This document shows, piece by piece, positions 632 to 49,110 of a DNA stretch of 64,000 nucleotides. Location of the stretch: contig CAZCUX010000029.1 of the NCBI GenBank assembly GCA_964502005.1, positions 32,468 through 96,467 on the forward strand, written 5' to 3'. The notes below the pieces were generated by a model. The model was not told the origin of the DNA, searched no databases, and saw only the letters and a program-made list of their open reading frames with translations. The translations under genes were made by a program, and so were the position numbers. Each line of letters begins with the position of its first letter. Position 1 is the first letter of the stretch. The stretch comes from an uncultured Enterobacterales bacterium (lineage in GTDB: Bacteria; Myxococcota_A; UBA796; UBA2385).

Positions 632-647
632 ATGAATCGCGATTCAG
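632..647. repeat. Palindromic element copy aTGAATCGCGATTCAg
   Basis: The stop codon of the minus-strand dynamin gene (644-646) lies inside it. Followed by TTTTT. Confidence 0.9.
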
Positions 648-3139
648 TTTTTCGGAGAAGCGGCGTTATCCCCAGGGAGGGAGGTTTCGCGAACGAGCAG
701 CACGCCGATGGTCTCGACGCGCGTATTGGGTGCTAGGTTCCACGGTTCTTGGTTTCGTTCCGCGACGAGCTGGGTGCCCGCGCGGCCGGGAGAACGGGTC
801 CAAAAGGCGCGGGCGCCGGGGAGGTCGTACGGAATTCCGTCGACTACGACCTGCGCTTCGTCTACATCGGGCAAGCGCCAGCCAGGCAGCGCATCGGCCA
901 AGCGCGTGGCTTCTGCGTAAGTCAAGCAAGGAGCGGCAGCGTTGGCGTCGTTGGGGAGCACGCAGTCTCCGGGACTTGTTCCTGCCGGGAGCCGTGGTCC
1001 GCCCGCAAACGCCGCGCCGAACAGCGCCTCTACCTCGGAGGGGCGCAGTGTATGTCCACAGACCCCCTGTTCGGCGTTGCCATCGCAGGTGAAGCCGAAG
1101 ACCTCGGACGTTGCCAAGGGGTACTTCCAGATAGACACGCTCCGGCCAATGTCGGCCCAGGCCGAAGACAGGGCCTCGCGCGCTTCTTGCCAGACGGGGG
1201 CGTTCCAAGCGCTGCCCACGGAGTCTGCTGCGGTGCGCAGCTCGGTGGCGAGGTCGTGTCGCAGAGCGGGGTCGACCCCTATCGCCGTGAGTTGGGCGTC
1301 GATGTGGTCCAGGGTGGCTTGGGTGGACACCGCCAAGTAGATGCCTCCCGTCGCGGCAACCACCGTCGCCGCCTTTCCTGCGCGCATCGTCGCCTGGGTG
1401 AGGGCCCATCGGTGAAGCGCGCGAAGCGAAAGCTGTGTGGGGGGCTGGAGGAGGACGGCGAGCCGGTGGGCCATTTCGAGGTCAGTGGGGGCGGGCGGCG
1501 TGGTGGTGGCGGACGGTTGATTCAGGACGATGCTGTGGGCGACCTGAAGAAGAGCACGCTGTTTTGCCGGGAGCAGCCACGATTGCGAGAAACGTTGGAC
1601 CCATGTATTGCGTTGTGTATGCAACGCATGTTGGAGCGCGCTTCCTATCCACGGAAGGCCGGTGCAGGGGGCGGGCTGCCAGAGGCTTGGCGCGGTGCAA
1701 CCTTCGCCGAACCGCGTGGGAACGTCGAGGTTCAGTATTGTGTCGCCAGAAAGAAGAAGCGAAATCAGGGTGTCGCGCGCGGTGGGGTCGGCGTGGGTCC
1801 ATCGCGCCGGTCGTGCCGCCAGTCGCGACAATTCGACGAGGCAACGCCGCCAAGTGCCTCCCGCTGGACTTCGGAGCAGAAACTCGTGGGTGTCCAACAG
1901 ATGGACCGCCTGGAGACACACCTGCAATTGGGGGTCGGATTGGCGCTGAAGCCATGCGAGCACGGGAACAAGACTGGCCTCGTCTGGCGGAGGCACGGTA
2001 GACCGCTGCACACGCAGAATGCGCAGCTCTTCGCGCCAGTCCGCGTGGAACTGCTGCAGCACGTTTTCTACGGCGGAGGGGCCTTTGTCACGTTGCTCGT
2101 CCAGCACGCGTTGGGCGACGAGGCGTCGGATGCGGTTGTGCTCGACGGAGCGCTTGGTTTGCACGAGGCGCTTTCGCTGTATGCGTTCGGCTTGGAGATT
2201 TCGCAATACATCGCGGACGGGACCGGTGCCGGGCAAGTGGAGGTCGGTTCCTTGGGTGGAGCAGTAGACGACGCCCGCCAGATTGCCGCGAAAGCGCGCG
2301 CGGAGGTCTTCTTCTAACTCCTTGAGTTGCTCTTCGCGGCTTGGGCCCCTTCGGCGGACACGAACCTTGTCGACCATAGTAAGCACAATCCAGGTGCGGC
2401 CGGTGATGCGCGCAAGTCTCTCCAATAGCTGCGTTTCGTCTTCGGAGCCGGCGCGGGTTGCGTCGCAAATCAACAATGCAGCATCACAGCGCCCCAGCTC
2501 TTCGTCGACGCGCAGCAGGTGGGACGGGTGCTCGCTTCCGACGCCGGGAGTGTCTACCAGCACGAGGTCTGCGAGGAGGGGATGGGACAATCGAAGACGC
2601 ACCCGCGCGGGTGCGTTGGGGCCTTGTGCGCGAAGGGCGGTCGCCAAACGTTCGCTTGGGAGCGGTCCCCAACTTCCGTCCGAGAACTGTTGGTCACAGT
2701 CGTTGGTGGTGCCTTCCTGCAACTCGGTAACGCAGCCGGTGGTGGGTTCGACGTCGGCGGGGAGGCGGGTGCCCAGTCCTACCAGCGCATTGAGCAAAGA
2801 TGACTTTCCGCTCGAAAACCCGCCCACCAAGGCGACGCGAAGTGCGGGTCCGTCATCGGGGGGCGTGCCCAAGGCCCGCGTGAGGACCGACTGTGCGCAA
2901 GGTGTGAGCAGCTCGGGCGACAGCGTTATATTGGACGTTCGGGTGTCCGCGCGCAGCTCGTCGAGCATCGTAGCGACGAGGTCTTCGGATAGGGCGGCGG
3001 ACGAAGTGGGTGGCGCGAGCGCGGGCCCGAGCGTTTCGAAGAGCGTGGCGGTCGAGGTCCATGGGCCGCGGTGCGCGAGTTCTGCGAGCCATGGCAAGGT
3101 GACGCGTTCGGGCACGGCCATGTGACGCGTCCCGTTCAA
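644..3139 (-). CDS. Bacterial dynamin-like GTPase (BDLP family), 831 aa, with a ~250-aa C-terminal extension
   Basis: P-loop ALVGGFSSGKSSLLNAL, G3 motif DTPGVGS, and a long helical stalk. The start ATG overlaps the stop of the upstream dynamin (ATGA at 3136-3139). The stop codon (644-646) is embedded in the TGAATCGCGATTCA palindrome. Confidence 0.85.
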   Translation of the reverse strand: MNGTRHMAVPERVTLPWLAELAHRGPWTSTATLFETLGPALAPPTSSAALSEDLVATMLDELRADTRTSNITLSPELLTPCAQSVLTRALGTPPDDGPALRVALVGGFSSGKSSLLNALVGLGTRLPADVEPTTGCVTELQEGTTNDCDQQFSDGSWGPLPSERLATALRAQGPNAPARVRLRLSHPLLADLVLVDTPGVGSEHPSHLLRVDEELGRCDAALLICDATRAGSEDETQLLERLARITGRTWIVLTMVDKVRVRRRGPSREEQLKELEEDLRARFRGNLAGVVYCSTQGTDLHLPGTGPVRDVLRNLQAERIQRKRLVQTKRSVEHNRIRRLVAQRVLDEQRDKGPSAVENVLQQFHADWREELRILRVQRSTVPPPDEASLVPVLAWLQRQSDPQLQVCLQAVHLLDTHEFLLRSPAGGTWRRCLVELSRLAARPARWTHADPTARDTLISLLLSGDTILNLDVPTRFGEGCTAPSLWQPAPCTGLPWIGSALQHALHTQRNTWVQRFSQSWLLPAKQRALLQVAHSIVLNQPSATTTPPAPTDLEMAHRLAVLLQPPTQLSLRALHRWALTQATMRAGKAATVVAATGGIYLAVSTQATLDHIDAQLTAIGVDPALRHDLATELRTAADSVGSAWNAPVWQEAREALSSAWADIGRSVSIWKYPLATSEVFGFTCDGNAEQGVCGHTLRPSEVEALFGAAFAGGPRLPAGTSPGDCVLPNDANAAAPCLTYAEATRLADALPGWRLPDVDEAQVVVDGIPYDLPGARAFWTRSPGRAGTQLVAERNQEPWNLAPNTRVETIGVLLVRETSLPGDNAASPKN

Positions 3140-4872
3140 GGCAAGGAGTCCAGTTCGGCGACGAGGGCGCGCAATTTTGCGGTGTGTTCGCTGGATGCAG
3201 GAGCGGAAATCGCGTCGATGCGACGGCGAAGCGCTTGTATTTCCGCTGTGACGTGCTGGTTGATGGCTGTCTGAAGCCTTTGCTCATGCTGGTCTATCGC
3301 GTTGCGCATCGACGCTCGAAGACCAGCGATGGCTTGCTGTGTGGTGGCGTCGGCGTCGACCACACTCCGGGTGGTGGTCGAAGACATTGTCGCTGCGCCC
3401 CATGCGATGAAGGGGAGAAGCCCTGGCGCGGTGAAGAGCGCGACGAGACCGGCGCCGACGGCCACTGCGAGCATATCGTTGCTCTCTTTGACCGTGCGCA
3501 TGCAGACATCGACATGTTGTGCTTCGACGCGCTTCGGGCCTTGGAGGGATAGCTTGGCTTCGGAGTCAATCAGCTCGGCCATTGCAAGCTGTAGCGCGCT
3601 TTTTGCGGCGTTTTGGTGGTGCTTGAGGTGGGCTTGGAGTCGGTCGGCAACTTCCTGAAGGACGGCTCTTGCCGCGTCTTTGTCGTCGGAACGGAGCTGA
3701 TTGGCCAAACGAATCCGCGCTTCGTCCAAGTCGACGTCGAGGCGAGACCGAAGCTGCTCTATGTGCGGCTTTTCGGAGGCGTGTACCTTTGTGGGCACAT
3801 TCGCCAGGACCTGTTGGAGCGTTCGTAGACGCTCGATGCGTCGGTTTGCTGCCTCTGCATCGAGGTGGGCGTCTTCGAGGCGCGCGCGGAGGGACAAACG
3901 CAAGCGTCGTTGCAGCGAGGTTTGCCGCTCGTTGTGCGCGTCCATCAACACTTCTACGCGTTGTTGGACGAGGTGTTCGTCCAGGAGCCCACGGAGCGTG
4001 GGGATACCCGAGGATTCGAGCGCCTCTATCTCTCCTGTGCCGACCTCGGGCCTGCCTATGCCCTCTACCTCGGCGATTGCGTCCTGGGCGTCGCGAGCGT
4101 CGGCGGCGGACACAAAAAGGATAGGTGGACAGCCGCCTGTCGCCTCCCGAACGGCGGACGCTATCCGGTCTTGTACGCGGGCCCGCTCGGCGCGGGTCGC
4201 GAGGGCGTCGGTGTGGTTGACGACGAGGAATGCGTTCTTGCGGTCCCCCAGAAGGACGTGCTCGCGCAGCAAACGAAGCTCGGCTTTGCCAAGTGGACGG
4301 TCGGCACGCGTCACGAATACCACAGCGTCGGCGCGGGGAAGCCACGCGAGGGTACAGCGTTCGCCGGCTAGCCCACCGGCTTGGGCGCCGGGTGTATCGA
4401 CCAGTTCTACTTCGGGCCCAGGCCAGCCCGGCGTTGTAATGGTGACCTCGACCTCCTCGGCGTCGGCCGAGCGGTCTTGGGCGAGCGTCGCGAGGTCGCG
4501 CAGCGGGCGTACGGGGCCGAGTGGTCTTCCCGGCAAACGTGCGCGGATGCCCTCGGTGCCCCGAGGGTCGCGGCGCACGCGGCAGACGGTCGCCGTGCAT
4601 TCACGCAGCTTCACGGGCACCACCTCGTCGTTCAGCAGCGCGTTGATGAGGGTGGACTTCCCCGCCTTGAATTCACCAACGAATGCAATTCGAAGGCGCT
4701 CCACCCGCAACTCTTGGTCCATTCGCCGCGCTTCACGCGCCAACTCTGGCTCTTCGGCACGTTCGGCCAGCGATGCGAGCGCCTGCAAGCGACTCCGCAG
4801 CTTTGGAATCTGGGTACGCAGGGCAGCAACGGCTTCGGAGGGGCGCGCGTCGCGTTCGAGAAGTGTGGACAC
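3136..4872 (-). CDS. Bacterial dynamin-like GTPase (BDLP family), 578 aa, first gene of a tandem pair
   Basis: P-loop FVGEFKAGKSTLINALL, G3 motif VDTPGAQ, a coiled-coil N-terminus, and a hydrophobic hairpin (LVALFTAPGLLPFIAWGAA) typical of a BDLP paddle. It is translationally coupled to the downstream paralogue. Confidence 0.85.
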   Translation of the reverse strand: MSTLLERDARPSEAVAALRTQIPKLRSRLQALASLAERAEEPELAREARRMDQELRVERLRIAFVGEFKAGKSTLINALLNDEVVPVKLRECTATVCRVRRDPRGTEGIRARLPGRPLGPVRPLRDLATLAQDRSADAEEVEVTITTPGWPGPEVELVDTPGAQAGGLAGERCTLAWLPRADAVVFVTRADRPLGKAELRLLREHVLLGDRKNAFLVVNHTDALATRAERARVQDRIASAVREATGGCPPILFVSAADARDAQDAIAEVEGIGRPEVGTGEIEALESSGIPTLRGLLDEHLVQQRVEVLMDAHNERQTSLQRRLRLSLRARLEDAHLDAEAANRRIERLRTLQQVLANVPTKVHASEKPHIEQLRSRLDVDLDEARIRLANQLRSDDKDAARAVLQEVADRLQAHLKHHQNAAKSALQLAMAELIDSEAKLSLQGPKRVEAQHVDVCMRTVKESNDMLAVAVGAGLVALFTAPGLLPFIAWGAATMSSTTTRSVVDADATTQQAIAGLRASMRNAIDQHEQRLQTAINQHVTAEIQALRRRIDAISAPASSEHTAKLRALVAELDSLP

Positions 4873-12036: not shown

Positions 12037-12978
12037 ATGCGCTTGTTGTTGCTGTCTTGTCTTTCGTTGTGGGTGGGATGTGCCGGTGCGTCCAAAAACG
12101 ACGGTACAGGCGCCACAAGCAGCTCCACCGCTGGCGAGGGAGAAGGGGAAGGCAGCGTTGACGCCGATGGCGACGGTGTTTCCGCAGGCGACGACTGCGA
12201 CGATAACGATAGCAACGTGTTCCCCGGTGCGCCGGAGCTGTGTGATGGCATCGACAATGATTGTGATGGCGCGCCCCACAGCGAAGAAGCCGATGACGAC
12301 GGCGATGGCGTCGCAGATTGTATGGCCTGTGCCGATGCCGGCTATTGGAATGCGCTGCGAGACGGCCTGACCGGCGAGGAGCTTCGGGCAGAGCTGTCCC
12401 AAAACCCTGACCCCACCTGCGATTACAGCCAGTCGAAGCGTGCGATTTACCAGAGCTTTGATTTGGAGTCCGGCAACGTTGTGACCTGCGTGTATACCGG
12501 CGACCAGGTGGCCATCGTCGGCGGCGGTCCCGAAGACGACGCCATGAACATCGAGCACACTTGGCCGCGCAGCGAAGGCGCCGAATCGGAGCCCGCATTG
12601 TGCGATGTGCACCACCTTTACCCCACCATGGTCGATGCAAACTCCGAGCGCGGCAGCAACCCCCTCGGCGAAGTGACAGGCACGGTCTATTGGAGTCGCG
12701 GAGGCTCTTCGCTTGGCCGTGACAGCGGCGGCACGACGGTCTTCGAGCCTCGCGACGCCCACAAGGGAAATGCTGCGCGCTCTATGTTGTATGTGTGGAC
12801 CCAATACGGCTACGCACCCTCGGCTGCGGAAAAAGACATGTACGCGGCCTGGAATGCCCTCGACCCCGTCGCTACGCGCGACGTCGAGCGCGATGCGGCC
12901 ACCAGCCGTTACCAATTCAACCACAATCCCTTTGTGGTGTGTCCCGCCTTCGCAGAACGTTTGTTGAATGCCCGCTGA
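12037..12978 (+). CDS. Secreted lipoprotein, extracellular endonuclease I (EndA/Vvn) family
   Basis: Lipobox LWVGCAG and an Asp/Cys-rich MopE-like linker (DADGDGVSAGDDCDDND...CDGIDNDCDG). Endonuclease-I motifs NIEHTWPRS and CDVHHLYP...N.ERGSNP. The stop TGA (12976-12978) lies inside the CTGAATCGCGATTCAG palindrome. Confidence 0.7.
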   Translation: MRLLLLSCLSLWVGCAGASKNDGTGATSSSTAGEGEGEGSVDADGDGVSAGDDCDDNDSNVFPGAPELCDGIDNDCDGAPHSEEADDDGDGVADCMACADAGYWNALRDGLTGEELRAELSQNPDPTCDYSQSKRAIYQSFDLESGNVVTCVYTGDQVAIVGGGPEDDAMNIEHTWPRSEGAESEPALCDVHHLYPTMVDANSERGSNPLGEVTGTVYWSRGGSSLGRDSGGTTVFEPRDAHKGNAARSMLYVWTQYGYAPSAAEKDMYAAWNALDPVATRDVERDAATSRYQFNHNPFVVCPAFAERLLNAR

Positions 12979-38210: not shown

Positions 38211-38290
38211 GCCGGCGAGACTTCGGCTCGCCGGCCGCCGCGAAGACCCGCAGGGGCTTCGCGGCGCCGCCGGAGCCCGCAGGCTCCGGC
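38211..38290 (-). terminator. Three consecutive GC-rich hairpins downstream of the MVP gene
   Basis: GCCGGCGAG-loop-CTCGCCGGC (38211-38235), CGCCGCGAAG-loop-CTTCGCGGCG (38236-38266) and GCCGGAGCC-cgca-GGCTCCGGC (38269-38290). No clear U-tract follows. Confidence 0.4.
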
Positions 38291-38301
38291 GGGCCCATAA
38301 C

Positions 38302-40863
38302 TTATGCTTTCGCCTCAGCTTTGTCGTTTGTTTCGACCGACAACACCGATGCCAAGGGTGTTCCCGCGAGGAGACGCCGCAGCACGTCGGCTACACTCTC
38401 GCCGCCCAGAATGGCCAAGGGTGCCATCGATGCGCTGACCTTCTCGACCATCGCGCGGTCGCTAAACGCCTGGAGCGCCGCGATGAGGTCCGGCGACACG
38501 GCCTCGGCTTTGGAAACCACAGCCTTGACCTCCGCCTCTAGCTCTCGAATGCGTTGCTCCATCGCGACTTTCGCCGCCTCCGCTTGTGCTTGCTGACTGC
38601 GTGTGCTTCGGACAAGCTCTGCGGTATGAATGGCGTCGAGGTCGGCCTGCGCGGCCTTCTCGGCATCCAGACGACGCGCGCGGAGGGCCAGCTCGCCCTC
38701 GACCCGCGACCGGTTGACGGCTTGCTCTTTGTCTATGCGCGCGACATCGAGGGCCAGCTCCATTCGGCGGGTCTCTTGCTCGGCTTCGACAATCTGGCGC
38801 CGAATCTCCTCACGACGCCGCACCAAAGCCAGTTTTCGCTCTTCGGCCGCCAAGGTGAGTGTCTCATCGACCACCGCGTGCTGTGCGCCGACCAGCAGCT
38901 CCGAGATGTGCTCGTCGCCAATGTCGATGCCGAGCACTTCTACGTCATACACACGCATTCCGTTTTCGGAGAACAAGCGGCCCGGTCGCTTTCCGTCTTC
39001 GCCGGGCCGACCGAGCAAGGTGTCTCGCACCATTTCGATGGCATCGGCGTGAAACTGCTGGATGCCGACTTTCTTGATGGCATTTCGCAGCACCGAGCGG
39101 AGGTGGTCGGTCAGGAACTTGACGTAGTTTTCAACGTGAAACCACTTTGCTGGCTCGCCTTCGAAGTTGACGCGGTAGGACAAGGTGAGGGAGACGGAGC
39201 AGAGGTCGCGGGTTTCGGCATCGACGCGGTCGGAGACGTTGTTGTGCAGCGACCGGAGGTAGACTGTGCGGTGGGGCTGTGCGTCGGACTTGGGGATGCC
39301 GGTGGAAAGCGTGATGGTCTCAAGCGTTTCGTCGTATTCGAGCAGCCGCGCTTTGGGTCCGACGACCACCTCTCGCTCCCCCGTGCGACTTACGACTTGG
39401 ATGGCGTAGCCCGTCCACACGGAAATGGTGACCGCGCCGTCGTAACGGGTGTCGAGGGTGATGGTGCGGGGCGGCGTGAACGACGTAGCGCGCTCAATGC
39501 CGTCGCCCACGGCGCGCTGCCGCCCGCGCTCGGCCGCCACCACCGGCGCTTGCTGCGGAGCGGACTCGCCGGCGCCGACAGCCTCTCGCAATCGCCGATT
39601 GACCTCCATGGCTTCGGTGTTTCCGGGAAACCACAGCGCGACTTGGTGGGGTTGCAGCACGCGCCGCACGATGACTTCTTCGCGTGGGTCGGCGAGGAAC
39701 ATCTTGGGACCGCGGACGAGCCGAATCTGTCCTGAATGGCGATTCAGTACGTACCGACCTTCGCCCGCGGGGATGGCGACCGCGTAATGAATCTGCTGGT
39801 CGCCATAACGGATGATGGCATGCTCGGGACGCGGGAAATAAATCATTTGGTCGCGGCCGGTGACGAACAGTTCGTCGCCGACATTGTGCTTGCCCTTGTC
39901 GTCTTCGTAGGGCGCGATGACCTTGATATAGAGACCGCTGTTTTCGTTGAGTTCGATGGCACGGAACTTTCGCCGGCCACCTTCCTCGACGAACGCTTCG
40001 GTGGGTTCGGGAAAAACCACCGCTGGTCCTTGAATGAAGCGTTTGTTGCCATCTTCATCCAGAAGGACACAATATTCGAGGCGTTCGAGCGTGACGGCAT
40101 CTTGAACGTATTCGCCGTGGGGGCTGCGCAATACCTCGACACCCGTAGGCGGAATATAAAAGCTGACCTCCGTGCCCTGAATGACGAGGCGGCGGCCCAA
40201 CGTGAGGGCGGAGGTGTCGACCTCGGTGGTGGCTGGGTCGGCTTCGTCGCCGCCGGCCTGCCGCTCGACAACCGCGTCATTCCAGTTTTTGCGTGCGGCC
40301 TCTTCATCGTAAATGCGCACCAGCAGGAATTGATTGGACCGAAGCTGGTGCCCTTGCACGACGCGCGCCATTTGGCCGGGCCACAACGCGAAGCTCACGG
40401 GACCCGGAAGATTGACCTTGTGGCCGACATGCAACTCAGTGAGATTGTTGACAGTTCCGTTCTTTGGAGGCCGGCCGTCGAGACTTGGATTCTTGACTGT
40501 GACGTACCAGCCTTTGGGTGCGGTCGGGAACAGCAGGGTGGAGCGCTCGAGCAAGCAGGCTTCGAAACGCTTGGTGTCTTCGTTGAAGAAGACGGGTTGG
40601 TCGGTGTTGGCGAGGCTCGTTTTGTAGGGACCGACGTAGACGTTGATGTTTCCTTTCGTTTGGTCGGAGATGAAGGCGAACTCGTTGGGGGCGAGGACCA
40701 AGTCACGTTCACGGGAGTTGCTCAAGAGACCTCCAGGGCGCACTTCGTAGATTCGTGTCGAAGTGACACCATCTAAATTGTCCCTTTTGGCACCGGAAGT
40801 CCAGTTCGTTGCTTCGATCATGACCGATGGTGACAATGTGAAAAACGACGCGACTTGATACAC
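38302..40863 (-). CDS. Major vault protein (MVP) homologue
   Basis: N-terminal LAPNEFAFISDQTKGNINVYVGPYKTSL parallels human MVP [26 protein letters not shown]. Reiterated vault-repeat motifs (VRGPKMFLADPREEV, IQGPAVVFPEPTEAFV, ELFVTGRDQMIYFP) are followed by a shoulder-like domain and a long C-terminal cap-helix coiled coil (EERKLALVRRREEIRRQIVEAEQ...). Confidence 0.75.
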   Translation of the reverse strand: MYQVASFFTLSPSVMIEATNWTSGAKRDNLDGVTSTRIYEVRPGGLLSNSRERDLVLAPNEFAFISDQTKGNINVYVGPYKTSLANTDQPVFFNEDTKRFEACLLERSTLLFPTAPKGWYVTVKNPSLDGRPPKNGTVNNLTELHVGHKVNLPGPVSFALWPGQMARVVQGHQLRSNQFLLVRIYDEEAARKNWNDAVVERQAGGDEADPATTEVDTSALTLGRRLVIQGTEVSFYIPPTGVEVLRSPHGEYVQDAVTLERLEYCVLLDEDGNKRFIQGPAVVFPEPTEAFVEEGGRRKFRAIELNENSGLYIKVIAPYEDDKGKHNVGDELFVTGRDQMIYFPRPEHAIIRYGDQQIHYAVAIPAGEGRYVLNRHSGQIRLVRGPKMFLADPREEVIVRRVLQPHQVALWFPGNTEAMEVNRRLREAVGAGESAPQQAPVVAAERGRQRAVGDGIERATSFTPPRTITLDTRYDGAVTISVWTGYAIQVVSRTGEREVVVGPKARLLEYDETLETITLSTGIPKSDAQPHRTVYLRSLHNNVSDRVDAETRDLCSVSLTLSYRVNFEGEPAKWFHVENYVKFLTDHLRSVLRNAIKKVGIQQFHADAIEMVRDTLLGRPGEDGKRPGRLFSENGMRVYDVEVLGIDIGDEHISELLVGAQHAVVDETLTLAAEERKLALVRRREEIRRQIVEAEQETRRMELALDVARIDKEQAVNRSRVEGELALRARRLDAEKAAQADLDAIHTAELVRSTRSQQAQAEAAKVAMEQRIRELEAEVKAVVSKAEAVSPDLIAALQAFSDRAMVEKVSASMAPLAILGGESVADVLRRLLAGTPLASVLSVETNDKAEAKA
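39732..39747. repeat. Palindromic element copy CTGAATGGCGATTCAG inside the MVP coding region
   Basis: Perfect half-sites. It is in-frame coding on the minus strand and may be coincidental or a genuine intragenic copy. Confidence 0.7.
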
Positions 40864-46436: not shown

Positions 46437-47444
46437 GTGAAAGTAAACTTGGAATTTATCGCCGATAGCAGCGATGGTGTGCTTTGGTCGGTCAGACGGG
46501 GAACAAGCCGCATTGGCCGTGCGCCCGACAACGACCTTGTGATTCCCGAGTCTGCGGTATCGGCCTACCACCTCGTATTGATGAACGATGCTTCGTGTGT
46601 TTCGATTCGAGACCTTGGCAGCACAAATGGCACCTATGTCAACGAGGAAAAAGTTGACGGGACAACCGCGCTTCACGACGCCGACCTCTTGCGGATTGGT
46701 CTTCATGTGCGGGCGCGGGTGGTCTTGCAGCCGGACGATTCGCCGGGGCAGCGGGCGGACGGCTGGTTGGTCCACCTCAATACGGGGCGCTCGTTTTCCC
46801 TCACCGGCGCCATTTCCTTGATGGCGCTCCTTGAAAATGAGCACCCATTGGAAGATTTTGCAGACGCGCTCGAGCCGGACGAAGAGACGGAAGATGGTGT
46901 GTTGACGCATCAACTTCGAATTGCGGGTGACGTGGTGGTGGTGGACGGACCCGAAGGCGTGCGGCGCCATCCGCTCAATGCCCGGTTTGACATCGGACCG
47001 CATCGCTTCGTGGCGCTCAGCGCCGATGATGCTGTCAGCACGACGGTTTCGTCGGTCGATACCCGGTGGACACTCCGGGTGGACATCGGAGGACGCGCGG
47101 GCGCTCAAGCGTATGTGGTGGACCCCGAGGGTCGCAGCCAGGGTTCCATTCGTGCGGCCAACCGTGTCGCGGTGCTGCATCAGCTTGTGCAGCAGCTTGT
47201 GAATGACCGAAGCGGCGGTGTGGGCGAGAACGACGTCGGCTGGGCCTCGGATGAAGACCTCATGCAAGGGGTGTGGGGTCGATTGTGGCGTAGCAAAGGG
47301 CCAGCATCATTTCAAGTGTTGGTCCATCGTGTCCGAAAAGACCTTGCACGCATGGGTTTGTCTGGCTCCATGATAGAAAAACGTGCTGGTTTTACGCGTT
47401 TGAAGCCGGGCACGGTTCGCGTTGAGCCATCCGACCTCGGCTGA
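46437..47444 (+). CDS. FHA-domain protein
   Basis: N-terminal FHA fold (RIGRAPDNDLVIPESAVSAYHLVL...STNGTYVNEEKV). It overlaps the downstream kinase gene. Confidence 0.7.
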   Translation: MKVNLEFIADSSDGVLWSVRRGTSRIGRAPDNDLVIPESAVSAYHLVLMNDASCVSIRDLGSTNGTYVNEEKVDGTTALHDADLLRIGLHVRARVVLQPDDSPGQRADGWLVHLNTGRSFSLTGAISLMALLENEHPLEDFADALEPDEETEDGVLTHQLRIAGDVVVVDGPEGVRRHPLNARFDIGPHRFVALSADDAVSTTVSSVDTRWTLRVDIGGRAGAQAYVVDPEGRSQGSIRAANRVAVLHQLVQQLVNDRSGGVGENDVGWASDEDLMQGVWGRLWRSKGPASFQVLVHRVRKDLARMGLSGSMIEKRAGFTRLKPGTVRVEPSDLG

Positions 47445-49110
47445 CCGCGCAACGCCGGAGATTGCTTTCGTGTTGGAAGTTCCCCCTCTCTTGGCAGGCC
47501 GGTATCGCATTGTCGACAAGGTCGGCGAAGGCGGCGCCGCGACTGTCTACCGCTGCCTCGACCAGCGCTTGGGGGTGATTTGCGCGGTGAAGGTGCTGTT
47601 GCCGCAGTCTGCGGAGGCGCGGGCGGGAATGCGGCAGCGGCTTCAGGCCGAAGCGAAAGTGATGGCGCGGTTGTCCCATCCCCACATTCTGGCTGTGACC
47701 GATGTAGGCCGAGAGCAGGACTTCGATTTTGTGGTCATGCACTTTGCCGCGGGCGGTAGCTTGTCGGACCGGCTGCGGGCGGAAGGCCCCATTTCTCCGC
47801 GGCAGGCGGTCATTTGGACCCTTGAGGTGCTCTCGGCGCTGGATGCGGCCCACAAGGCGGGCGTGGTCCACCGGGACGTGAAGCCGCAAAACCTGCTGCT
47901 CACCCACGACAACCGCATTCAGTTGGCGGACTTTGGCATTGCGCTCATCGACAGCCCCGAGTTTGACCGGAAGACCCGGACGGGCGTGGCGATGGGCTCC
48001 ATGGCGTTTATGGCCCCTGAGCAGCGGCTTGATGCGTCGCGGGTAACGCCCGCCGCGGATATTTATGCCGTGGGCGCGACCTTATATACGCTGTTGACGC
48101 ATCGCAGCCCGATGGACCTCTTTACGGCGGACGCCGCGTCGCCTCGCTGGGCGTTGGTTCCCGAAGCCTTGCGCCCGGTGTTGCTTGGCGCCACACGCTA
48201 CGAACCCGCCGAACGAATTGCCGATGCAGCGGCATTTTCGATGCTTCTCGAAGATGCTCTCTCTACGCTTTCGGACGATGGGATACCGAAGTTCGTGCTG
48301 TTGCCCACGGGAAACACAGCGCCATCGACGTCCCCGGCGACACGCGCGCCCACGTTGGCGCCAGTCGCGCTTGCGCCCACGTTGGGACCGCCCGCGCCAA
48401 CGACCGTTTTGCCGCCGAGGTTGGCGCAACCATCGCGGCGAAAGGAATGGGCGGCGGGTCTGTTGGTCCTACTGGCAGGGGGAGGCGCGTACTTCCTGTT
48501 TGCGGCCCCTCCAAGGGCGGTAGAAGCGCCGCAGATAGAGGATGCCGTCACCCCCCCTGTGCCTGTCGCGATTGCTCCTGTCGAGGCCCCAGTAGCGCCC
48601 ACAACGCCCCTTCCCCCGCCCGAGGAGCCTCCACCAGCGCAACCGGAGGCGGTTTCACCGGCGCCCCAACGGGAACGGGCGCCTGCGCCGCGACGTGCCG
48701 CGGCCCCCGCTTCGCCGCTCCCGACCAACCTCTCGTCCGAGGCTCCCCAAAACATTGGGCCCGCGGCGTATCCCTTGGGCCACGCGCTCCCGCCTCCTGC
48801 CGGGCAATGGAGCTTGGGCGTCAACGGTGTGCAGCAGGTGCTTCGTTTCGCCTTGAACGGCGGGCAAGTGCGGGGTACTGTCGAGTCGCGAATGGGGGAA
48901 GCACGGCACCGTACGCACATTCGGGGCGAATGGCGAGGGGACACCCAGACGCTCGCATTGGAAGAAACAGGCTTGCCTGCGGGTGAAGTGGGGGCGCGGT
49001 ATGTGTTGCGCCTTGATGAATCCGCAAATGTGGTGGTAGACGGCAAACTCATCACCTCCAACGGCATGGTCCGCGTGGCCGGAACCCGCGACACCGAGGA
49101 CCAATGGTGA
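47422..49110 (+). CDS. Hanks-type Ser/Thr protein kinase with Pro/Ala-rich linker and C-terminal extracytoplasmic domain
   Basis: Kinase subdomains GEGGAATVY, AVK, HRDVKPQNLL, DFG and APE, followed by a single TM segment and a Pro-rich low-complexity region. Confidence 0.85.
   Translation: MSHPTSADRATPEIAFVLEVPPLLAGRYRIVDKVGEGGAATVYRCLDQRLGVICAVKVLLPQSAEARAGMRQRLQAEAKVMARLSHPHILAVTDVGREQDFDFVVMHFAAGGSLSDRLRAEGPISPRQAVIWTLEVLSALDAAHKAGVVHRDVKPQNLLLTHDNRIQLADFGIALIDSPEFDRKTRTGVAMGSMAFMAPEQRLDASRVTPAADIYAVGATLYTLLTHRSPMDLFTADAASPRWALVPEALRPVLLGATRYEPAERIADAAAFSMLLEDALSTLSDDGIPKFVLLPTGNTAPSTSPATRAPTLAPVALAPTLGPPAPTTVLPPRLAQPSRRKEWAAGLLVLLAGGGAYFLFAAPPRAVEAPQIEDAVTPPVPVAIAPVEAPVAPTTPLPPPEEPPPAQPEAVSPAPQRERAPAPRRAAAPASPLPTNLSSEAPQNIGPAAYPLGHALPPPAGQWSLGVNGVQQVLRFALNGGQVRGTVESRMGEARHRTHIRGEWRGDTQTLALEETGLPAGEVGARYVLRLDESANVVVDGKLITSNGMVRVAGTRDTEDQW

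Follow-up and report, generated by a model that had tools for sequence, protein, structure and literature searches.

A gene on the minus strand of a 64,000-nucleotide stretch from an uncultured bacterium (assembly GCA_964502005.1, contig CAZCUX010000029.1, positions 32,468 to 96,467; hereafter the window) had been predicted, from the letters alone, to encode a bacterial homologue of the eukaryotic major vault protein (MVP). The eukaryotic vault is a two-halved shell of 78 MVP copies with D39 symmetry. The original prediction is supported by Pfam domains, a profile search against the PDB and a structure model, and there is hardly any doubt that the gene encodes a true bacterial relative of eukaryotic MVP, that is, a member of the MVP family. 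It is flanked by a divergent SulP permease gene and a downstream ASST-like gene, both of which were described correctly at the outset and identified by Pfam scan.

The gene and its domain anatomy

The mechanical list of open reading frames (ORFs) gives a minus-strand frame at 38302-40863, with 853 codons from GTG to stop. This frame is real, but the 853 amino acids (aa) originally assigned to the protein do not hold: the call is almost certainly over-extended, by 46 codons, and the real start is the TTG at 40725, which yields 807 aa. In a public assembly, a product with 100% identity is called as 807 aa. Among the 120 closest family members listed, which served for the comparison of lengths, proteins measure 804-868 aa, mostly 804-830. 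In an alignment of the upstream regions, the ATG starts of three orthologues with 79-81% identity line up exactly with the window TTG. Each aligned start is preceded by GGAGG or GGGAGG (GGAGG at 40734-40730 in the window), and this ribosome-binding site and the start codon are the only upstream DNA conserved among the orthologues. On the grounds of the identical product, the family lengths and the orthologue starts, the gene was taken as 38302-40725, and residues are numbered throughout on the 807-aa protein. Starting the gene at the TTG widens the gap to the divergent SulP gene from 49 bp to ~190-200 bp. The layout given below was read from the DSSP string of the structure model, profile alignments to rat MVP and an hhalign self-comparison.

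38302..40725, minus strand: coding sequence for the MVP homologue (807 aa and a stop codon), beginning with TTG at 40725
40726..40863, minus strand: in-frame upstream extension of the mechanical ORF, probably untranslated (the family begins at the TTG), holding the Shine-Dalgarno GGAGG at 40730-40734
39250..40704, minus strand: vault-repeat region at the N-terminus (residues 8-492), with about seven beta-sheet modules
Residues about 8-52: repeat module 1, aligning with rat R1
Residues about 53-118: repeat module 2
Residues about 119-199: repeat module 3, interrupted at 141-176 by a helix plus an acidic loop of low conservation
Residues about 200-250: repeat module 4, aligning with rat R6
Residues about 251-305: repeat module 5, aligning with rat R7
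Residues about 306-356: repeat module 6, aligning with rat R8
Residues 359-384: two helices before the last module
Residues 386-430: disordered linker before the last module
Residues about 431-492: repeat module 7, aligning with rat R9
38917..39249, minus strand: shoulder of SPFH-like fold, residues 493-603 (PF11978 at 93.6 bits, predicted local distance difference test (pLDDT) score 95-98, matched by SPFH structures)
38506..38916, minus strand: equivalent of the cap helix (residues 604-740), modelled as a single unbroken helix of ~136 residues (605-740)
38305..38505, minus strand: C-terminal tail, residues 741-807, conserved in the bacterial family, modelled at low confidence

Family membership was established at the sequence level by two Pfam models, both of which exceeded their curated cutoffs in the profile search that had been proposed as a check. 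MVP_shoulder (PF11978) reached 93.6 bits against a cutoff of 25, over profile positions 2-118 of 118, confirming the shoulder-like region, and Vault_3 reached 33-36 bits against 28.8. The remaining Vault models gave no match in the N-terminal 495 residues (Pfam scan, E<=10), so the repeat region needed validation by structure; the protein had no match in NCBIfam or PADLOC. A phmmer search against all PDB sequences returned major vault protein chains only (E about 1e-14), and so did family profiles built from 53 and 144 homologues, with E values of 1.5e-25 and 1.8e-41, respectively. The larger profile is colinear with rat R6-R8, then R9, the shoulder and the cap helix, and its alignment ends at residue 814 of rat MVP. 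The vault signature noticed earlier at the N-terminus is indeed colinear with rat R1 (profile 13-50 versus rat 10-46), but the sequence alignment alone is non-significant, at -0.1 bits, and it is the structural match that validates this part. The repeated G-P-x-x-[FY]-x-P-x-x-E-x-V modules were not borne out in their strict form. Residues 32, 108, 233, 339 and 456 mark five G-P turns of a looser kind, none of which fits the strict motif exactly; the nearest approach is GPAVVFPEPTEAFV at residue 233, one residue out of register.

Structure prediction, another of the checks proposed, gave a confident model that matches full-length vaults and, separately, isolated repeat-domain crystal structures. 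A first AlphaFold2 run with 53 close homologues (59-81% identity) reached a pLDDT of 52 and left the N-terminal half unusable. This was remedied by a diverse alignment of 144 homologues (40-81% identity), with which the mean pLDDT rose to 84.7, with a predicted template modelling score of 0.65 and a repeat region above 90. In a Foldseek search of this model against the PDB, the top matches were 12 full-length vault chains (E 2.5e-35 to 1.5e-27), spanning 820-925 alignment columns with template modelling (TM) scores of up to 0.49-0.53. Next came crystal structures of the murine R1-R7 repeat domain in isolation, at E 6e-16 and a target-normalised TM score of 0.51.

SPFH proteins first appeared at E 2e-7 and covered the shoulder plus helix only. 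The SPFH domain fold is common to the shoulder of the window protein and to the cage proteins HflK/C, QmcA, flotillin, prohibitin, stomatin and erlin, and one could suppose that the protein is simply an SPFH/band-7 protein with a coiled-coil tail, its likeness to vault repeats being spurious. The evidence leaves this alternative practically no probability: the SPFH matches extend over ~240-430 alignment columns, against 820-925 for MVP with E values down to 2.5e-35; the R1-R7 crystal structures match independently; and Vault_3 lies above its cutoff. This outcome, named beforehand as the one that would overturn the assignment, was looked for and did not occur; it was ruled out because vault repeats were recovered by Vault_3, by the PDB profile and by Foldseek alike.

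Eukaryotic MVP (the rat, human and rabbit vaults; PDB 4v60, 9bw5, 9z4w) thus shares with the window protein the fold and the order of repeats, shoulder and cap helix, although only 18-23% of residues are identical. The repeat stack differs. Eukaryotic MVP has nine repeats, R1-R9, whereas the window protein appears to have about seven, an estimate from the DSSP string of the model, five of which map to rat R1, R6, R7, R8 and R9 with two between. The repeat of the module-5 type shows a weak alignment to rat R3 and R5 as well, and we infer that a single R3-type repeat stands in the bacterial protein where eukaryotes have R3, R4 and R5. A further difference is the 36-residue helix plus acidic loop inserted in repeat 3. 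Towards the C-terminus, the long coiled coil of the original prediction appears as one continuous helix over residues 605-740, which aligns with the rat cap-helix region in the HMMER profile alignment. The tail that follows has invariant positions over residues 740-788 in the family alignment and a pLDDT below 50 for much of its length; it is a possible equivalent of the cap ring. No hydrophobic segment was found, the maximum Kyte-Doolittle value in a 19-residue window being 1.16, and the protein is predicted to be soluble and cytoplasmic.

Possible assembly into a vault-like shell

Taken together, the explanation that we favour, at a rough probability of 65%, is that the window holds a stand-alone gene of the bacterial MVP branch whose product forms a vault-like shell. 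Many copies would pack side by side through the repeat stack and the shoulder, as eukaryotic MVP and SPFH cages do; the dome would come from bundling of the long helices, and the wall from the repeat stack. The product would be a hollow vault-like or half-vault shell, with a wall shorter than the rat vault's, given about seven repeats instead of nine. Across the 144 diverse homologues, conservation is highest in the repeats and the shoulder, as is expected of packing surfaces, and lowest in the long helix. Moreover, the SPFH relatives that share the shoulder plus helix all form domed rings in solved structures. The chances that the protein closes into a cage seem evenly balanced.

Several observations weigh against such a shell. 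No report of bacterial vault particles was found in the literature, and the C-terminal tail, which would close the cap, is modelled at low confidence. The reduced number of repeats and the 36-residue insertion in repeat 3 could alter lateral packing. The TEP1-, PARP- or TROVE-like genes that might accompany a vault are absent from the window ORFs scanned. In addition, a NAD+/ADP-ribose pocket has been described at the shoulder of human MVP, formed by R507, P508, H509, R511, L517, P565 and K573 (PMC12280208). In the phmmer PDB alignment, these residues stand opposite S, D, Q, H, R, E and D, with none of the seven identical, although the alignment of this loop is uncertain, and the family consensus likewise differs from the human residues. 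The basic residues of the pocket are not conserved, so that the eukaryotic shell has at least one property that the bacterial protein does not share.

A different reading, the chief rival, retains the MVP fold without closed, free vaults: the protein might form open rings or half-domes, perhaps docked on the inner membrane as SPFH scaffolds are or on another structure, or it might be a smaller oligomeric scaffold. The SPFH-like shoulder is compatible with this, as is the additional match of some family members to Pfam Band_7 (PF01145); on membranes, SPFH cages take the form of single domes, the repeats are fewer than in eukaryotes, and non-vault roles were raised in a 2019 preprint (10.1101/872010). 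Nevertheless, SPFH proteins are membrane anchored and have no counterpart of the ~490-residue vault-repeat stack, whereas the window protein has the stack and lacks both a membrane anchor and a hydrophobic segment. Its N-terminal repeat is strongly conserved; in eukaryotes this is where the two halves meet, a contact that would be pointless in a membrane-docked dome. We consider this alternative unlikely on balance, though it deserves to be kept in view.

If the vault-like shell is the better description, the bacterial family may build genuine hollow particles in the cytoplasm, and the seven-repeat form may stand near the ancestor of the nine-repeat eukaryotic shell, which would have arisen via duplication of one repeat type. 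We put this forward tentatively, with somewhat less than even confidence. Were it true, myxobacteria, or this protein in E. coli, would offer a tractable system for asking what vaults are for, and the novelty would be that of the whole family and not of this locus.

Distribution and origin of the family

The original prediction held that bacterial MVP homologues are rare, which is contradicted by their number. An exhaustive profile search of 1.84 billion representatives at 50% identity recovered 1,679 clusters at E<=1e-3, of which 772 reached E<=1e-30; scores were 826-1,177 bits for the top 150 clusters, mostly with near full-length matches. In a word-indexed search, 6,346 of 8,000 scored proteins reached E<=1e-5. 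The best 120 matches of this search are all full-length and 59-100% identical, and many carry the name "major vault protein" assigned by the Joint Genome Institute. Named sources include Enhygromyxa salina, Nannocystaceae, Paraliomyxa and Polyangiaceae, together with metagenome-assembled genomes of Planctomycetota, Melainabacteria and Sericytochromatia.

Members of this family have been noted before, some of them in close relatives of the source organism. Bacterial homologues, with Plesiocystis pacifica represented by two copies, appear in Daly et al. (2013; PMC3762200), and Sokolskyi (2019) analysed proteins of Enhygromyxa, Saprospira, Microscilla and Moorea, placing a Myxococcales/Cytophagales clade apart from a cyanobacterial-eukaryotic clade (10.1101/872010). 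The MVP-like proteins of Myxococcota and Bacteroidota, from Plesiocystis pacifica (A6FXM1/A6FXE2), Enhygromyxa salina, Saprospira grandis and Microscilla marina (PMC3762200; 10.1101/872010), have the same family, length, architecture and Pfam domains as the window protein and differ from it in sequence divergence only. Those of Enhygromyxa salina are 60-61% identical to it over 93-94% of its length, and those of Nannocystaceae and Paraliomyxa about 62% identical, whereas its nearest relatives, at 79-81%, come from metagenome assemblies. Plesiocystis (PMC3762200) and one related assembly have two copies, against one in the window; in that assembly, GCA_046766455.1, the two paralogues are 81% and 65% identical to the window protein and lie in different neighbourhoods (loci L004 and L007). 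Beyond bacteria, phage MVPs falling within the bacterial clade were reported in a 2023 preprint (10.1101/2023.11.10.566534), and a 2026 paper described Asgard homologues, with five repeats in the representative, while still referring to "only a few Bacteria" (PMC12962969). These Asgard and phage proteins also have repeats, shoulder and cap helix, and are known by prediction only.

Two of these accounts (10.1101/872010; PMC12962969) are in line with the original description of bacterial homologues as functionally uncharacterised, and no experimental study of any bacterial MVP member was found in the literature. The window gene itself is one more sequence in a known and populous family, and its novelty is low. 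What goes beyond the published accounts is the size of the family, with 772 clusters at E<=1e-30 as against "only a few Bacteria", the confident model with about seven repeats rather than nine, and further homologues in huge phages. Nearly forty years on from the discovery of vaults, what they do is still an open question. A bacterial system would lend itself far more easily to manipulation, and the family is a reasonable route to an answer.

The genomes that encode these phage homologues belong to huge uncultured phages and measure 462 kb and 735 kb; the genes lie in records LR756500.1 (20955-23363) and LR756501.1 / LR756503.1 (17686-19599), with identities of 42% (98% of the query aligned) and 48% (residues 5-627). 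The records LR756500, LR756501 and LR756503 are distinct from the two gut phages of the 2023 preprint.

Such records raise the question of whether the window gene was itself acquired recently from a eukaryote, or is carried by a phage or other mobile element, instead of being a resident bacterial gene. Some cyanobacterial MVPs are more than 50% identical to eukaryotic MVP and have been discussed as transfers (PMC3762200, 10.1101/872010), and the phage homologues reach 42-48% identity to the window protein. The identity of the window protein to eukaryotic MVP is, however, just 18-23%, and hundreds of diverse bacterial clusters are known. GC content is even across the window, and the side with the SulP, ExbBD, FHA and kinase genes is syntenic with the locus of an 81%-identical orthologue. 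Furthermore, the 26 window ORFs compared with Pfam, and the gene with its four neighbouring ORFs compared with PADLOC, gave no match to a phage or defence family. We attach very little credence to this alternative; a recent eukaryotic or mobile-element origin is unlikely.

Neighbourhood, hairpins and palindromes

The MVP and SulP genes share a divergent promoter region. The SulP neighbour is kept only in the 100%-identical contig and in the orthologue loci of 79-81% identity, and the ExbB/ExbD, response-regulator, FHA and Ser/Thr-kinase genes beyond it are shared with one orthologue locus. The downstream neighbour varies even between close relatives, and at 60-65% identity all neighbours differ. 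A search of ten related loci, drawn from six sets of homologues, gave no conserved operon partner, and the gene is a stand-alone unit without a conserved partner. As originally stated, no TEP1-like or PARP-like gene occurs among the 26 window ORFs scanned with Pfam; TROVE-, vWA-, PARP- and NACHT-like genes are likewise missing from these ORFs and from the gene tables of the related loci L002-L009. None of the eukaryotic vault partners, TEP1 (TROVE/NACHT/WD40), PARP4 and vault RNA, is evident for the window protein.

In five loci of different lineages, a Ser/Thr protein kinase gene lies ~0.6-7 kb from the MVP homologue, at the positions below. This recurring proximity may reflect the mere abundance of such kinases in these genomes.

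Window, 47422-49110: Ser/Thr kinase
L002, 1813-3513: Ser/Thr kinase
L004, 6945-8084: Ser/Thr kinase
L008, 6484-9402: Ser/Thr kinase
L009, 4651-7524: Ser/Thr kinase

Two structural elements of the DNA had also been noticed in the original prediction, and they are located as follows.

38211..38292, minus strand: three consecutive GC-rich hairpins directly after the MVP stop (minimum free energy -91.4 kcal/mol, z = -4.4 versus shuffles)
39732..39747, no strand assigned: in-frame palindrome copy CTGAATGGCGATTCAG, encoding LNRHSG, residues 327-332
601, 632, 5190, 12975, 14266, 17200, 39732, 42562, 63756, 63985: palindrome copies in the window

The three hairpins, whose existence stands, occupy the gap that separates the MVP stop codon from the ASST-like gene. 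They have no T-tract, and a simple terminator scan made no call there. They do not recur elsewhere in the window as a dispersed element, and they are absent from the orthologue locus L002, in which the next gene begins 10 nt past the stop. A terminator, as first proposed, or an RNA-stabilising structure is possible.

The in-frame internal palindrome is present as described, and in the family alignment N328, H330 and S331 of its LNRHSG peptide are variable. The 16-bp palindrome CTGAAT[CG]GC[CG]ATTCAG occurs in 10 window copies against 0.05 expected, allowing up to one mismatch. It was not found in nine related loci and therefore appears peculiar to this genome; it might serve as a regulator site or be a repetitive extragenic palindromic (REP)-like element. 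Four copies, at 12975, 14266, 17200 and 42562 (27 nt past the SulP stop), lie at ORF ends, and the palindrome includes TGA on both strands.

Elsewhere in the window, at 644-3139 and 3136-4872 on the minus strand, two adjacent overlapping ORFs each encode a Dynamin_N GTPase domain, in the paired arrangement usual for bacterial dynamin-like proteins.

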